Counted from the stretch's first letter, positions 4,681-36,047 are shown. The stretch: DNA of 64,000 bases from an uncultured Gemmatimonadales bacterium (GCA_963708135.1 OY970192.1:2336001-2400000); one strand, 5' to 3'. The notes: generated by a model not told the origin, from the sequence alone. Program-made: numbers and translations.

Positions 4681-6520
4681 ATGATGCGTCAGATGCGAGA
4701 CCAGATGAAGCTGATCATGATCGTCACCTCGGTGGCGTTCGTCGGTCTCATGGTGTTCGGCTGGGGCATGGACATCTCCGGGCGCAGCGGCGCGAGCAAC
4801 GGCCAGATCGGCGAGGTCAACGGCCAGCCGGTGTCGTACCAGGAGTTCAACACCGTCTACCGCAACCTGTACGACCAGCAGCAGCGGACGCAGAAGGCGC
4901 CGATGTCGACGTCCATGACGCACCAGCTCGAGGACGCGGCGTGGCGGCAGATCGTGATGCAGAAGCTGATCGACCAGGAGCTCGACCGGCGCGGGATCCG
5001 GGTGCGGGACGAGGAGATCCGTGAAGCGGCGCGGACGTCGCCGCCGCCGGAGTTCATGCAGAACCAGAATGTTCCAGACGGACGGCCACTTCGACCTCTC
5101 GAAGTACCAGCGGTTCCTCGCCTCGCCCGCGGTGGACAACCAGCTGCTGCTCCAGCTGGAGGGCTACTACCGCGACATGATTCCGCGCAGCAAGCTCTAC
5201 TACCAGGTCACGGCGGGCGGCTACGTGGCGGACAGCGAGTTGTGGCGTCGCTACCAGGACCAGCACGAGAGCGCGAAGGTGCGCTTCATCCTGATCGACC
5301 CCGCGCGCGTCATCCCGCCAGCGGCGATCACGGTGACGGACGGCGAGATCAAGAGCTACTACGAGGCGCATCAGGACGAGTTCAAGCGGCCGGCGCACGC
5401 GAGAATCGAGTACGTCGCGATCGACAAGTCGCCGAACGCGGCGGACACGGCCGCGGCGAAGACGAAGGCCGATTCGGTGCGGGCGGCGATCACGGGTGGC
5501 AAGGACTTCGCCGAGGTTGCCAAGGCGGAGTCGTCGGACCAGGGCTCGGCGGCGCGCGGCGGCGAGCTGGGTGTGATCCGCAAGGGGCAGACGGTGCCGG
5601 CATTCGAGCAGGCGGTCTGGTCGCTGAAGGTGGGCGAGCTGAGCGAGCCGGTGCTCACGCAGTTCGGCTACCATATCATCCAGGTGGAGAGCCGCAAGGA
5701 TGATGAGGCGACGGTGCGCCACGTGCTGATCCCGATCAAGGCCTCGCAGGAGCACGAGGACCGCCTGCTGACGGCGGCGGACTCGCTCGAGAAGCTGGGC
5801 GAGACGATGACGCTCCCCGAGGCCGCTCGGGAGATGGGGCTCCAGTCCCGCACGACCGAGCTGAACCAGCAGGTGCCGGTGATCCCGGGGGTCGGCCGCG
5901 TGGAGGATGGCGCGGACTGGGTCTTCGATGATGCCAGCCCGAAGGACGTCAGCCAGGTCTTCGAGGGCGACAACGCCTTCTACATGCTGCAGCTGGATTC
6001 GCGCACGCCGGCAGGGGTCCTCTCGCTGGCGGAGGCCACCCCGCTGATTCGTGGCAAGCTGACCCAGGAGAAGCGGCTCGTGAAAGCGCGCGAGGTCGGG
6101 CGTCAGATGGTCGACGAGGTGCAGTCCGGCCGTACGCTCGATGCGGTCGCGCAGAACCATTCGCTGAAGGTCCAGGAGGCGGGCCCCTTCACGCGCAACG
6201 ACTTCGTTCCCGGCCTCGGCCGCGACGATGCCGCCATCGGGACCGCGTTCGGGCTGAAGCCCGGCGAGACGAGCGGGCTCGTGGAATCCAACGATCTGCT
6301 CTACATCATCCAGTCGCTGGAGCGGACGCCCGCCGACCGCAAGGCGTTCGAGGAGCAGAAGGACATGCAGCGCGCCCAGCTCATGAACGCGATGAACGAC
6401 CAGCGCTGGAACGAGTTCCTCGCCTCGCTGCGCGAGAAGGCGGATGTCGTGGACAACCGCGCGAAGGTGCTCAAGGCGTCCGAGCAGAACGCGCCGCTGC
6501 CGCAGCAGGCGCAGTTCTGA
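4681..6520 (+). pseudogene. PpiD/SurA-family membrane-anchored peptidyl-prolyl isomerase, apparent +1 frameshift at ~5068
   Basis: N-terminal TM anchor and SurA-N region (MMRQMRDQMKLIMIVTSVAFVGLMVFGWG) lie in one frame. The continuation MFQTDGHFDLSKYQ and the parvulin domain (SAARGGELG...TQFGYHII) lie in the next frame. One extra A in CAG-A-ATG-TTC separates them. May be a sequencing error. Confidence 0.8.
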
Positions 6521-30388: not shown

Positions 30389-30831
30389 GGGGCGATGCGG
30401 ATGCCGGGGAGGTCGGGTGGCGTGCCGCGCCGCACGGCGTGGACGCGGCGGTGGTCGGCCGCGGCGGCCGGGTCGAGGTGGATGTCCCAACGGTCGGACG
30501 GCAGGAGCTCCTCGGCACGCTCGGGCCACTCCACGAGCACGATTTCCGGTCCATCCCCGAGCTCGCGCCAGCCGAGCTCCCAGACCTCCTCCGGGTCGTC
30601 CAGCCGGTAGAGGTCGAGGTGGGCGACGTCCAGCCCGCGCGCGCCGTGGTAGCGGAACAGCAGGTTGAAGGTCGGCGACGGAAGGTGCCCCTCGACGCCA
30701 GCGCCGCGCGCCACCGCGCGCGCGAGCACGGACTTCCCCGCTCCGAGCGGCCCGCGCAGCGCGAGGAAGGCGGGCGCATCGACGAGGGCGCCGATGCGCT
30801 CGCCCCAGGCCGTCAGCTCGAGCTCGTTCAT
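30385..30831 (-). CDS. tsaE: tRNA t6A biosynthesis ATPase TsaE
   Basis: [26 protein letters not shown]. Confidence 0.93.
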
Positions 30832-32846
30832 TTCGACGGGGCCGAGCCCGCCTTCCCCCGGCCGAGCCGCGCCTGCACGTCCATCAGCTGGTCCCGCAGG
30901 AGCGCCGCGCGCTCGAAGTCTCGCGCCGCCGCCGCCTCCCGCATCTGGTGCTCCAGGATCTTGGCCCATTCCTCGAGGTTCACCTCCTGGGCGTAGCTGG
31001 CCCGTGGCTCGGCCACCCGGGCGGGGGCCTGGTGCCGCGCGTCGGCCACGCGCGTGGCGAGCATGCGCTCCTCCACGCTCTTCACGATCGTCTGCGGCGT
31101 GATCCCGTGCGCCTCGTTGTAGCTCCGCTGCATCTCGCGGCGCCGGTCCATCTCCTCAATGCAGCGGGACATGGACCCGGTGACCCGGTCCGCGTACATG
31201 ATGGCCTTGCCGGCGGCGTTGCGGGCGGCGCGGCCGACCGTCTGGATGAGCGAGCGCTCGTCGCGCAGGAACCCCTCCTTGTCTGCGTCCAGGATGGCGA
31301 CGAGCGAGACCTCGGGCAAATCCAGCCCCTCGCGGAGCAGGTTGATGCCGACGAGCACGTCGAACCTGCCGAGCCGGAGGTCGCGCAGGATCTCGACGCG
31401 CTCGATGGCGTCGATGTCGGAGTGCATGTACTGCACGCGGATCCCGATCTCCCTGAGGTAGTCGGAGAGGTCCTCCGACATCCGCTTCGTGAGGGTCGTG
31501 ACCAGCACCCGCTCCTGCCGGGCCTCGCGCTCGCGGATCTCTGCGATCAGGTCATCCACCTGCCCCTTCACCGGCCGCACCTCGACCTCCGGGTCGAGCA
31601 GCCCGGTGGGCCGGATGAGCTGCTCGACGACCACGCCGCCGGAGCGCGCGAGCTCGTAGTCCCCAGGCGTCGCCGAGACGAACAGCGCATGCGGCACCAG
31701 CTCCTCCCACTCCTCGAACCGGAGCGGCCGGTTGTCCAGCGCGCTCGGCAGCCGGAACCCGTAGTCCACCAGCGTCAGCTTGCGGGCACGGTCGCCGTTG
31801 TACATGCCGCGGATCTGCGGCACCGTCTGGTGCGACTCATCCATGATGACGAGGAAGTCCTCCGGGAAGTAGTCGAACAGGCATGCCGGCCGCTCCCCCG
31901 GCGCACGCCCGGTCAGGTGCCGCGAGTAGTTCTCCACCCCAGGGCAGGTGCCGATCTCGAGCAGCATCTCGATATCGAAGTTCGTGCGCTGCTCCAGCCG
32001 CTGCGCCTCGAGCAGCTTGCCCACGGCGCGCATCTCGAGCAGCCGGTCCTCGAGCTCGGCCCGGATCAGGTGCACCGCCCGCTCGACGGTCGAGCGCTGC
32101 GTCACGAAGTGGGTCGCCGGGTAGATGGCCGCGCGCCGGAGCCGCGTGATCGCCTCGCCGGTGAGCGGATCGAAACGCGTGATGCGCTCGACCTCGTCGC
32201 CGAACAGCTCGATGCGCACGGCCTGCTCCTCGTAGGCGGGGAACACCTCGATCGTGTCGCCGCGCACGCGGAAGGTGCCGCGCTGAAACTCGAAGTCGTT
32301 GCGGTTGTACTGGATGCCGACCAGCCCCTGCAGGATCTCCCGCCGCCCGATGTGCTGCCCCACGTCCACCGTGAGCATCAGCTGCCGGTACTCGCGCGGA
32401 TCCCCCAGGCCGTAGATGCAGGAGACCGACGCCACCACGATCACGTCCTCCCGTTCCATCAGCGAGGAGGTGGAGCGCAGCCGGAGCCGGTCGATGTCCT
32501 CGTTGATCGAGGAGTCCTTCTCGATGTAGGTGTCCGTGGAGGGGACGTACGCTTCAGGCTGATAGTAGTCGTAGTACGAGACGAAGTACTCGACCGCGTT
32601 CCTGGGAAAGAACTGCTTCAGCTCGCCGTACAGCTGCGCGGCCAGCGTCTTGTTGTGGCTCATCACCAGCGCCGGCTTGCCGTAGGCGGCGATCACCGAG
32701 GCCATGGTGACGGTCTTGCCCGAGCCGGTGACGCCGAGCAGGGTCTGGCTGCGGTCGCCCCGCGCCACCCCCTCGGAGAGCTCCGCGATCGCCTGCGGCT
32801 GGTCCCCCGCGAGCGCGAACGGGAGCTGAAGGTCGAAGGTGGACAT
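30828..32846 (-). CDS. uvrB: excinuclease ABC subunit B
   Basis: [40 protein letters not shown]-terminal UVR domain. True start is ATG 32846; the longer ORF-track start runs through a repeat. Confidence 0.97.
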
Positions 32847-32890
32847 GCGGTAATCTACCCCGGAACGGCGGGAGGGGTCGAGGGGGAGAC

Positions 32891-33000
32891 GCAAGAGCAA
32901 GAGCAAGCGCAAGAGCAAGAGCAAGCGCAAGAGCAAGAGCAAGAGCAAGAGCAAGAGCAAGCGCAAGGCGCAAGCGCAAGGCGCTAGAGCAAGCGCGAGA
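32891..33000 (+). repeat. tandem array of ~18 GCAAG(A/C) hexamer/heptamer units (left arm)
   Basis: GCAAGA/GCAAGC x12, then GCAAGGC GCAAGC GCAAGGC GCTAGA GCAAGC GCGAGA, read directly. Confidence 0.95.
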
Positions 33001-33309
33001 GTGGCGTGCTCTGCCATTCCGACGCCCCGGTGTTCGGGGCAGCGTTGGGGCGTCCAGCACGGGAGCGAACGAATGGAGCCGAAGAAGGTCGAGGCGTGTC
33101 GGGAGAACGAGAGGGCGGGACGCCGAGGGGCGCGATTCGATCACGAGCGCCTGGACGTGTTCCAGGTCTCACTCGATTTCGTGGTCCTGGCGCAGACGAT
33201 CGCGGGCGCCGCCGGGCGAGCCGCACCCGCGCTGGCCGACCAGCTGTCTTGCGCCGCTTTCTCGATTCCGCTCAACATTGCGGAAGGTTCCGGCGAATTC
33301 AGCCTGGGG

Positions 33310-34631
33310 CAGTACTGTCCGGTTAAGCTGAGATGATGATGCCGTAACGGATTGCTACGTGGTGCGTTACGACGTTTTGGTTGCCGCACCGATTTGAACT
33401 TCGCTGCTGCGCCGCTATCCTGCCCGGACCCCCCGGCCGGAGTGGCGCATGAATCCCGGAAGCACGGTTTTCTCACAGGTGATGGCCCACGCATCTCGCT
33501 TCGCGCTCGATCGGTGCATCCGCCGCTACCACGGCAACCGGAGGGTCCGACGTTTCTCGTGTCGGGACCAGTTCCTCGCCATGGCCTTTGCCCAGCTCAC
33601 CTACCGGGAGAGCCTGCGGGACCTCGAGGCCACCCTCGGGGCGGCCCCCGAGAAGCTGTACCATCTTGGCTTCCGTTCGCCGCTCTCTCGCAGCACGCTC
33701 GCCGATGCGAACGAGAATCGCGACTGGCGCATCTACGCCGATTTCGCTCAACGCCTGATCGCAGACGCGCGTCGGCTCTACGCCGACGACACGTTGGGGA
33801 TCGAGCTCACGAACACCGTCTACGCGCTGGATTCCACCACGATCGACCTGTGTTTGTCGCTGTTCCCCTGGGCCTCGTTTCGTACGAGCAAAGGCGGCGT
33901 GAAGCTGCATACACTGCTCGACTTGGCAGGCAGGATCCCCGCCTACGCCTGGATCACGGACGCGAGCACCCACGATGTGCGCATCCTCAATGCGCTCATC
34001 CCGGAGCCCGGATCGATCTACGTCCTGGACCGCGGCTACGTCAACTTCGCCCGCCTCTACCGACTCGATCAGCACCGGGCCACCTTCGTCGTTCGCGCCA
34101 AGGCAAACCTCAAGTTCAACCGGCTCTCCTCAGGACCCGTCGATCGCACCACCGGCGTCTTCTGTGATCAGATCATCCGCCTTGCGCTGCCCCCGTCTGC
34201 CAGGGCCTATCCCGACCGGCTTCGCCGCGTGCGTTTCAAGGACGCAGGGTCCGGGCAGGACCTCGTCCTTCTGACCAACAACGTCGCGCTGCCCGCCGTT
34301 ACCGTGGCCGAGCTCTACCGCCTGCGGTGGCAGATCGAGCTCTTCTTCAAATGGATCAAGCAGCACCTCAGGATCAAGCGCTTCTTCGGCACGAGCGCGA
34401 ACGCTGTGCGCACGCAGATCTGGATCGCGATCAGCGTTTACGTCCTCGTCGCGATCGTCCGCAAGCGGCTCCGGATCGAGCGCGAACTCTACACAATTCT
34501 ACAGATCCTGAGCGTCTATGCGTTCGAGAAAGCCCCTCTCGCACAAGTACTTACGCGTTCGGCCTACACCCCCGAAGTCCCCTCCGATCGTAACCAGTTG
34601 TCGCTCTTCAACTTATAACCGGACACTACTG
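33310..34631 (+). mobile_element. IS4-family insertion sequence, 1322 bp
   Basis: TIRs CAGTACTGTCCGGTTA (33310-33325) and CAGTAGTGTCCGGTTA (revcomp, 34616-34631), 15/16 match. 9-bp TSD AGCCTGGGG at 33301-33309 and 34632-34640. Visibly lower GC. Confidence 0.95.
33449..34618 (+). CDS. IS4-family DDE transposase (DUF4372-type N-terminus)
   Basis: ALDSTTIDL, GVKLHT, DRGY, YRLRWQIELFFKWIKQ (YREK motif). Stop codon lies in the right TIR. Confidence 0.95.
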   Translation: MNPGSTVFSQVMAHASRFALDRCIRRYHGNRRVRRFSCRDQFLAMAFAQLTYRESLRDLEATLGAAPEKLYHLGFRSPLSRSTLADANENRDWRIYADFAQRLIADARRLYADDTLGIELTNTVYALDSTTIDLCLSLFPWASFRTSKGGVKLHTLLDLAGRIPAYAWITDASTHDVRILNALIPEPGSIYVLDRGYVNFARLYRLDQHRATFVVRAKANLKFNRLSSGPVDRTTGVFCDQIIRLALPPSARAYPDRLRRVRFKDAGSGQDLVLLTNNVALPAVTVAELYRLRWQIELFFKWIKQHLRIKRFFGTSANAVRTQIWIAISVYVLVAIVRKRLRIERELYTILQILSVYAFEKAPLAQVLTRSAYTPEVPSDRNQLSLFNL

Positions 34632-34854
34632 AGCCTGGGGGAGAAACGGCGGTTCTACAGGATCGCCCGAAGGTCGGCTACCGAGTGCGCGGCGATCCTG
34701 TCCGTCGCGGAGCGCCTCGAGCTCGGCCAGTCAGCTGCGCGCGACCGCGGCCGTGAGCTCCTCGGTAGGATCGTGCCGATGCTGACCCGCCTGTGCGCCG
34801 CTCACCCACGCACCCACACCGCCCCCGAGCCCCCCGCCTGACCCCCACCCCCCG

Positions 34855-34910
34855 GCGCGCTTGCGCCTTGCGCTTGCCTCTTGCGCTTGCCTCTTGCGCC
34901 CTGCGCCCTC
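34855..34910 (-). repeat. inverted tandem GCAAG-type array (right arm)
   Basis: Reverse complement reads GAGGGC GCAGGGC GCAAGAG GCAAGC GCAAGAG GCAAGC GCAAGGC GCAAGC GCGC. 34857-34877 is the exact reverse complement of 32957-32977. Confidence 0.9.
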
Positions 34911-34913
34911 CGT

Positions 34914-36047
34914 TCACCTCACCAGCCCCTGCCTCTCCATCTCCGCGAAGCTCGCCTCGACCCGGTCCTCGGCGGCCTGCCCGGCGGACCAGGCGAGCAG
35001 CTCGTCCAGGCCCTCGTCGAAGCTCAGGCGCGCCCGGAAGCCGAGGAGCTCCTCGGCGCATCGGGGGTCGCCGATGCAGTGGCGGATGTCGCCGGCGCGG
35101 TAGCGGCCGACCAGGCGGGGGGCGACGTCCACGCCGAGGCGCGAGGCGAGGCGCTCGGCGACCTCCGCGATCGTGACCGGGCGGCCCGTGCACACGTTGC
35201 AGACGCCGCTGCGGGCGGGCGGCGCCTCGAGGGCCGCGAGAACAGAGTCCGCGACGTCGTGCACGTGGATGAAGTCGCGGCTCTGGCGGCCGTCCTCGAA
35301 GACGAGCGGAGGATTGCCGTTCTTCAGCCGCCCCATGAAGATCGCGGCGACGCCGGTGTAGGGGTTCGAGAGCGCCTGGCGCGAGCCGAACACGTTGAAG
35401 AAGCGGAGCGCCAGGGTGGGAATCCGGTACGCCCCGCCGAAGCAGAGGGCGAGCTCCTCCTGCGTCTTCTTCGTGATGGCGTAGATGCTGGTGGCCTGGA
35501 GCGGCTTCTTCTCGGGCGTGGGGAGGGGCGCGAGCGCCTCGCCGCACGCCGGGCAGCGCACGTTCCAGCTGCCACCGGCGAGCTGTGCCTCGGGACGTGG
35601 CAATGGGGCGACGACACCGTGGTTCGGGCAGCGGCCGGCGCCTTCGCCATAGATGCTCATCGAGCTCGCGACGACGAAGCGGCGCCAGCGCGCGGGCTCG
35701 CGCGCCATCTCCTCCATGAGCATGCCCTGCCCGGCCACGTTGACGTCGGCATAGTAGTGGGGCTCGTACATCGACTGCCCGACCCCCACAGCGGCGGCGA
35801 GGTGGCAGACGGCGTCGGCCTCGCGCAGGGCATCCGCCACGGCGGTGCGGTCGCGCACGTCGCCGTGGACGAAGCGGATGCGGCCGGCGTCGAGGTGCGC
35901 CCGGAGGTGGACGGGCGAGGTCGCCTCGGGGCCGTGGACCTGGGGATCGAGGTTGTCGAGGACGGTGGGTTCGTGGCCGGCCTCGAGGAGGCGGTCCACG
36001 ACGTGGGAACCAATGAAGCCGGCGCCTCCGGTGACCAGCACACGCAT
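34914..36047 (-). CDS. NAD-dependent epimerase/dehydratase
   Basis: TGGAGFIGSH, HLAAAVGVGQSMY, ASSMSIYGEG, YAITK, QALSNPYTGV. Confidence 0.9.
   Translation of the reverse strand: MRVLVTGGAGFIGSHVVDRLLEAGHEPTVLDNLDPQVHGPEATSPVHLRAHLDAGRIRFVHGDVRDRTAVADALREADAVCHLAAAVGVGQSMYEPHYYADVNVAGQGMLMEEMAREPARWRRFVVASSMSIYGEGAGRCPNHGVVAPLPRPEAQLAGGSWNVRCPACGEALAPLPTPEKKPLQATSIYAITKKTQEELALCFGGAYRIPTLALRFFNVFGSRQALSNPYTGVAAIFMGRLKNGNPPLVFEDGRQSRDFIHVHDVADSVLAALEAPPARSGVCNVCTGRPVTIAEVAERLASRLGVDVAPRLVGRYRAGDIRHCIGDPRCAEELLGFRARLSFDEGLDELLAWSAGQAAEDRVEASFAEMERQGLVR

Follow-up and report, generated by a model that had tools for sequence, protein, structure and literature searches.

The window analysed in this study is a stretch of 64,000 bp (G000:C1:2336001-2400000) from a member of the Gemmatimonadota, whose genome (5.45 Mb, 72% GC) is represented by a single contig and is 97.7% complete. 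Two genes that belong to the host and not to any element, uvrB (30828..32846, minus strand; NF003673/TIGR00631 above cut-off) and a gene for an NAD-dependent epimerase/dehydratase (34914..36047, minus strand), lie on either side of a repeat-bounded cassette, with uvrB downstream of it on the minus strand. The left arm of the cassette (32891..33001, plus strand) is made up of about 18 tandem GCAAG(A/C)/GCAAGGC units (period 6, 18.2 copies, 85% matches; 16 exact occurrences of GCAAG and two variants). The right arm (34855..34909, plus strand) is the reverse complement of the left, with seven to eight CTTGC-type units (7.7 copies according to TRF; six exact occurrences of CTTGC and one variant). 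There is a perfect 21-bp inverted pair between the arms (32957-32977 and 34857-34877), and perfect inverted pairs of at least 21 bp at a spacing of 0.3-2.5 kb are present in just 15 of the 1815 3-kb bins of the genome. Without the insertion sequence (IS) described below, the cassette measures 688 bp from arm to arm and carries an ORF of 145 codons. The first-pass annotation had described inverted GCAAG arrays of about 18 and 8 units enclosing a gene, a perfect 21-bp match between them and, before the IS arrived, a cassette of about 0.7 kb with a 145-aa ORF, placed between the epimerase end (34914) and the uvrB start (32846), both on the minus strand. All of these features are borne out by the values computed here.

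The cassette had also been called the sole counter-oriented unit in a 40-kb minus-strand run, and this holds under a crude gene caller. Plus-strand genes with a Pfam match lie at 5021 and 46965; apart from the cassette, the interval between them contains two called plus-strand ORFs, neither of which matches Pfam. A strand-biased region has been reported for the Gemmatimonadota, and the long one-strand gene run fits that report (PMC11237797). The longest direct match between the outer flanks of the cassette is 4 nt, so there is no target duplication. No rRNA match was found by Rfam in 32400-35400 (there were two chance snoRNA matches below the gathering score), and a promoter and terminator scan of the locus, sigma-70 included, gave no site. 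The stretch is present in one DNA sequencing run (X1), which may be the source sample. Four sequencing runs, as contigs, contain no joint that skips the IS or the cassette and are uninformative on excision; an RNA run matched the repeat alone and is uninformative on expression.

The gene within the cassette is a four-helix-bundle (PF05635/TIGR02436) gene in two parts, a 5' part (33073..33309, plus strand) and a 3' part with the stop codon (34641..34841, plus strand; PF05635 positions 57-105). The two halves match adjacent ranges of the PF05635 and TIGR02436 models, each being below the cut-off when taken alone, and the family assignment made earlier is therefore upheld by both halves. For the intact homologue at the equivalent site in a relative, G002, the score with the PF05635/TIGR02436 family model is 74 bits (cut-off 33.8). 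The halves are separated by an IS4-family element (33310..34631, plus strand; 1322 bp) with a transposase at 33449-34618 (NF033592, E 2.9e-78) and a 9-bp target duplication (left copy 33301..33309, right copy 34632..34640, plus strand). Transposase, terminal inverted repeats, target duplication and multiple copies, as in IS4-family elements, are all present. Because there are six full copies in the genome at 99-100% identity, each with its own 9-bp duplication, the IS4 element is a recent guest, separate from and later than the cassette. Three further copies (G000:C1:5135795-5136907, 332250-333362 and 4828253-4829365) make up another IS4-like family, with about 73% identity to the IS of the window.

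The consensus RxxxSxxxNxxE is given for the PF05635 motif in a paper that also notes PF05635 genes inside cas loci (PMC3936711). The motif Arg is present in 84 of the 93 homologues with a matched motif and is replaced by Cys in none of the 93, but the window copy has Cys at this position (33250-33252). The window copy therefore has neither an intact motif nor, given the IS4 insertion, an unbroken frame. With a recent IS4 element splitting the gene and Cys in place of the motif Arg, the window copy is very probably a dead pseudogene and matters as an example only.

There are 11 PF05635 genes in this genome, and their inverted arms are built of different repeat units at each locus. To compare flanks, we scored each gene by the best local alignment, in inverted orientation, of its two 300-nt flanks and took the 99th percentile of 800 control genes as the threshold. 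The set comprised 104 rows: the 11 genes of this genome, 89 loci from genomes of the same family (29 returned by the search and 60 of about 150 listed rows, picked by position and not by flank) and four second genes that these loci contained. Eleven rows were dropped for short flanks, leaving 93 scored loci. Inverted flanks score above the threshold in 60 of the 93 loci and in 10 of the 11 paralogues here, as compared with 8 of the 800 controls (1%, by construction), and the median score is 47 for the family loci and 23 for the controls. In direct orientation, 14 of the 93 loci exceed the threshold; a high inverted score is absent in 33 of the 93. Clean tandem periodicity over the aligned arm is seen in 26 of 66 armed loci, the rest being composite. 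The flank check proposed in the first-pass annotation, that homologues be examined for inverted arms, thus gave a positive answer. An exact-hexamer bracket score (at a threshold of 3, reached by 5 of 11 PF05635 genes and 10 of 3646 controls) missed composite arms and gave way to the local-alignment score. The class is real and general. It is apparently unpublished; we found no description of PF05635 genes in inverted tandem arms outside rRNA in the full-text literature searched, which includes few subscription papers.

PF05635 is carried by 53 of 61 genomes of the family, with 0-15 copies each. In a tree of 102 proteins, from which a single long branch had been taken out and in which many forks are unresolved, the hexamer period changes to or from other periods 10 times, against a mean of 15.2 in shuffles, and 1 of 500 shuffles was as low; the period labels (45 rows) were automatic and are noisy. 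The window protein groups among hexamer-armed relatives. The repeat period tracks the protein clade, and simple co-inheritance in cis could also give this pattern. A search of species-representative genomes with the G002 homologue returned six non-self matches, the cross-phylum homologues being 45-64% identical. Hexamer arrays of other sequence are present in five of the six (three titled Chlamydiales-group and two uncultured bacteria). In two of these five the gene is bracketed and in three a hairpin lies just downstream, while the most distant of the six has no hexamer array. At L135, L136 and L139 (Chlamydiales-group), both hexamer arms are 3' of the gene as a closed hairpin, which in L135 is repeated in tandem.

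Two of the paralogues in this genome, L006 and L008, are 3.6 Mb apart and have in common the gene, about 30 nt upstream and the downstream arm; L006 has no upstream arm. Their dN/dS is 0.22, so intact PF05635 genes look selected. There is no near-identical pair among the 11 paralogues, all of which differ in arms, ends, units and sequence, and they are orientated both with and against their neighbour genes. Four loci (L074, L082, L052 and L128) each have two PF05635 genes close together. Both full-length GxxExxY (PF13366) genes of this genome (G000:C1:3137568-3137954 and 1205975-1206319) also have inverted short-repeat arms (scores 43 and 41), and the arms are therefore not exclusive to PF05635. 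GxxExxY is a candidate nuclease partner or second cargo. DUF559 genes were considered as further cargo and rejected, one of the seven tested having reached 38, with longer flanks.

Repeats of this kind also occur where there is no PF05635 gene. The genome has 24 GCAAG/CTTGC clusters, and three gene-less GCAAG/CTTGC hairpins (G000:C1:460735-460838, 799346-799426 and 4944276-4944491) have 17-39 exact nucleotides in common with the left arm of the window cassette. The hairpin at 4944276-4944491 contains a perfect run of 19 CTTGCT-type units. The first-pass annotation had raised the possibility that arrays occur genome-wide independently of this gene family, and this is partly the case. Of 281 strong arrays, 17 have a PF05635 gene within 500 bp and 264 are farther away. 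Among 158 distant intergenic arrays, however, 62 have a 14-mer in common with a PF05635 flank and 96 have none, whereas random sets of 11 genes give a mean of 19.8 and 2 of 200 such sets reach 62. Arrays at a distance from the gene speak against a discrete cassette whose ends are fixed and in favour of a system made up of a gene and dispersed repeats. Sampled stretches of eight gene-less genomes contain 3 arrays in 283 kb and those of ten gene-rich genomes 11 arrays in 279 kb (one-sided p 0.03). These genomes are related to one another, their assemblies are in fragments, and the difference is a weak and non-independent sign of a trans link. Larger tandem clusters with periods of about 140-250 bp (G000:C1:539821-541444, 3230675-3235794 and 4709493-4710796) are composed of elements with GAGTGGGA/TCCCACTC octamer ends, and one of them adjoins the paralogue L001. 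At G000:C1:445383-446553, a 343-aa gene, a likely D-Ala-D-Ala ligase to judge from its N-terminus, has inverted heptamer arrays on both sides and a gene-less hairpin immediately upstream.

The uvrB-upstream site was also compared among relatives, in which the first-pass annotation had proposed a search for empty sites. Most of the loci are empty, with relA no more than 360 bp upstream of uvrB in 16 of 29, which leaves no room for a cassette. A candidate empty site is seen in G019, where an epimerase gene (68% identical) lies 141 bp before uvrB and there is no cassette; the upstream neighbours in this genome are other epimerases and not relA. In G002, which has the closest UvrB (85%), the intact homologue lies between relA and uvrB in the same orientation as the window gene. 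The repeat unit of this cassette is the same as in the window but the arm polarity is swapped. Flipping an inverted-repeat cassette, whole or inside, cannot swap polarity, and the arms were therefore rebuilt or assembled separately from the gene. The window and G002 proteins are not sisters in a quick tree, but a single clade is not rejected (p-AU 0.38), so that independent insertion cannot be claimed for this pair. In G036, from another family, two heptamer hairpins enclose a co-oriented gene in which the family motif was recognized by eye. We infer that a double hairpin losing its inner or its outer arms would yield either polarity. Gene-less hairpins are present at the uvrB-upstream site in G009 and G018, with a weaker one in G032. 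The site is therefore patchily occupied, and the cassettes in G002 and G036 are differently built.

There is a -10-like box (GGGGTAGATT; 32852..32861, minus strand) 5 nt before the uvrB ATG, a putative leaderless uvrB promoter. Such a GGGTA- or GGTGTA-led box precedes the uvrB ATG in 14 of 27 loci, the window included, against 1.6% of random 24-mers; the pattern was set post hoc, after viewing uvrB upstream regions (L013-L032 among the loci). It is found with or without a cassette and suggests that the uvrB mRNA is leaderless. Because the box lies just before the ATG in so many of the loci, expression of uvrB is probably independent of read-through across the cassette.

For the IS-free cassette, folding predicts 46.8 arm-arm pairs on the mRNA strand and 42.5 on the other. 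The suggestion that the arms could loop out the ORF on either strand is thus supported by a predicted stem of about 42-47 bp. The arm duplex energies are -88.1 against -68.7 (sd 4.4) for dinucleotide-shuffled arms and -94.2 against -74.7 (sd 4.4), a modest margin, as shuffled low-complexity arms remain partly complementary. The AlphaFold model of the G002 homologue has four helices (pLDDT 89). Each of the closest relatives with a solved structure, 2GSC and 2RLD, contains five chains, and the cassette protein may accordingly be a pentamer. The relationship to Avd proposed in the first-pass annotation was recovered by profile, 13 of 55 aligned relatives matching the Avd model NF033474 (best E 4.3e-11). 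Avd is a pentamer in which each of the five protomers touches an RNA stem-loop and flipped-out bases occupy the inter-protomer crevices (10.1101/2023.10.23.563531). We identified no catalytic partner for the PF05635 cassette.

Taken together, the data lead us to favour a REPtron-like system over a passive hitchhiker, an IVS-like mRNA unit and an autonomous element, with a confidence that falls a little short of even. An intact PF05635 protein would bind single-stranded repeats of this type and aid their persistence or spread, much as REP-associated proteins are thought to do for REP repeats. On either strand, pairing of the arms into the predicted stem (about 42-47 bp) would leave the gene in the loop and make the insert self-contained in a transcript or in single-stranded DNA. 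The protein may form an Avd-like five-membered ring with roughly one repeat unit per subunit, and a five-fold ring would be a natural reader of tandem units. It has no known catalytic role, and cutting and joining would be carried out by host recombination or by a nuclease in trans. The gene would be gained through recombination into existing repeat hairpins and lost through loop deletion, leaving gene-less hairpins behind.

A passive hitchhiker is the less probable but most substantial alternative. Hairpins would multiply by slippage or recombination as neutral or transcript-stabilizing intergenic repeats, and PF05635 and GxxExxY genes would land in them as safe, recombinogenic sites, the job of the protein being unrelated to the arms. 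The 264 of 281 arrays that lie far from the gene are as expected on this account, as are the armed GxxExxY genes and the opposite arm polarity in G002, where the same unit at the same site implies that the arms were rebuilt separately. Similar Xanthomonas heptamers are reported to be dispersed, transcribed and in stable regions (PMC4692102). Ordinary genes, however, are almost never bracketed (8 of 800, against 60 of 93 PF05635 loci). Within a single protein subfamily, the hexamer period is also kept in hosts that are AT-rich and belong to another phylum, where the unit sequence is different; this conservation of period despite a different unit suggests a constraint from the protein.

The other two alternatives are each improbable. 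If the cassette were an IVS-like unit, the arms would pair in the epimerase-uvrB transcript, a nuclease would cut the stem and the ORF would be removed. The protein family is that of the 23S IVS, folding of the mRNA strand gives the predicted stem (46.8 expected pairs), and in the Coxiella burnetii 23S IVS the terminal stem measures 28 bp and the ORF is preceded by tandem heptamers (PMC4990558). Excision of the 23S IVS is by RNase III (PMC4990558), and RNase III was found neither in this genome nor in any of 61 genomes of the family, near-complete ones included, although control genomes were positive. Excision from an mRNA by this known route, as the first-pass annotation had envisaged, is therefore unlikely. 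None of 10 paralogue loci has an Rfam match such as rRNA, and uvrB appears to own a promoter. IVS excision is not known to be followed by religation and would in that case only split an mRNA. The second of these alternatives is an autonomous, transposase-free element with fixed ends, moving as one unit through an RNA or ssDNA circle in the manner of a retroelement, and it is just as doubtful. It would account for the patchy copy number across the family genomes, the differently built cassettes upstream of uvrB in G002 and G036, close paralogues at distant sites (L006/L008) and cross-phylum homologues at 45-64% identity. Against this, there is no match to a reverse transcriptase (PF00078) in this genome and none beside the gene, and reverse transcriptase is present in 13 of the 61 family genomes as compared with 53 for PF05635. 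A Y1 HUH transposase (PF01797) likewise has no match in this genome, the outer flanks share 4 nt at most, L006 has no upstream arm, and ends and units differ among all 11 paralogues, with no near-identical pair.

The REPtron-like reading can be widened, as a possibility that we hold only tentatively, to make PF05635 the missing trans partner of the 6-9-nt tandem hairpins of many bacteria. The pentameric ring of each clade would read one period and promote annealing or template switching at the arms, and gene-bearing and gene-less hairpins would spread without transposase, reverse transcriptase or RNase III. The ORF-bearing rRNA IVS would then be a case that landed in an rRNA helix, and the Avd of diversity-generating retroelements a domesticated member. 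The large PF05635 family, for which structures have been solved, is without an assigned function, and the packaging described here links it to unexplained intergenic 6-9-nt repeats. If each clade binds its own unit, this would be a selfish gene-repeat system without a nuclease, and the origin of the rRNA IVS and of Avd would be explained. The failure to find RNase III in the 61 family genomes is itself unusual for bacteria and bears on rRNA maturation.

Among known systems, MITEs and insertion sequences resemble the cassette in having inverted ends and non-autonomous gene-less forms, but the cassette has no target duplication, conserved terminal repeat or cognate transposase. Avd is related to the family by detectable profile homology, although one tabulated relative matches TIGR02436 and not the Avd model, and a diversity-generating retroelement would have, near avd, a reverse transcriptase with template and variable repeats, whereas this genome has no PF00078 match. 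The heptamers of Xanthomonas (GGGAATC) and Nostoc are, like the arrays here, genome-wide intergenic tandem 7-mers with some inverted pairs; they have been read as G-quadruplexes, whereas the GCAAG arms have no G-tracts (PMC4692102). In the supplement to that paper, repeat no. 15 (GGGAATC), listed outside the inverted pairs, overlaps the start of XCC0516 (PMC4692102). XCC0516 is the solved PF05635 pentamer 2GSC, and neither it nor the PF05635 family is mentioned in the main text of PMC4692102.

The ORF-bearing 23S IVS (S23p/IVP; Coxiella and Leptospira) has a PF05635 protein, its ORF lies in an inverted-repeat stem loop, its distribution is sporadic and decay of the ORF is tolerated (PMC4990558). 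Terminal inverted repeats forming a stem around the ORF are also predicted here. The window cassette is, however, intergenic (epimerase/uvrB) and not within an rRNA gene; there are 11 copies with different units and gene-less arm pairs across the genome; and, as against excision by RNase III, this enzyme was found in 0 of the 61 family genomes. The window cassette thus resembles the Coxiella IVS in build but lacks two defining features of an IVS, and that such cassettes thrive where RNase III was not found sets them apart from the IVS model. REPtrons (tnpA-REP/RAYT with REP/REPIN/BIME) are alike in several respects: the gene lies between repeats of a family that belongs to it, a genome has several such genes with a separate family for each, the distribution is patchy, gene-less inverted doublets are dispersed intergenically and there is no movement as a neat unit (PMC6006769). 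The repeat family that flanks the gene here is likewise also dispersed gene-less in the genome. The protein, in contrast, is an all-helical PF05635 bundle and not an HUH nuclease (there is no PF01797 in this genome), and the repeats are tandem 6-9-mers and not GTAG-tagged palindromes (PMC6006769). The cassette is therefore closest to the ORF-bearing IVS in its build and to REPtrons in its genome-wide pattern, and is a member of neither.
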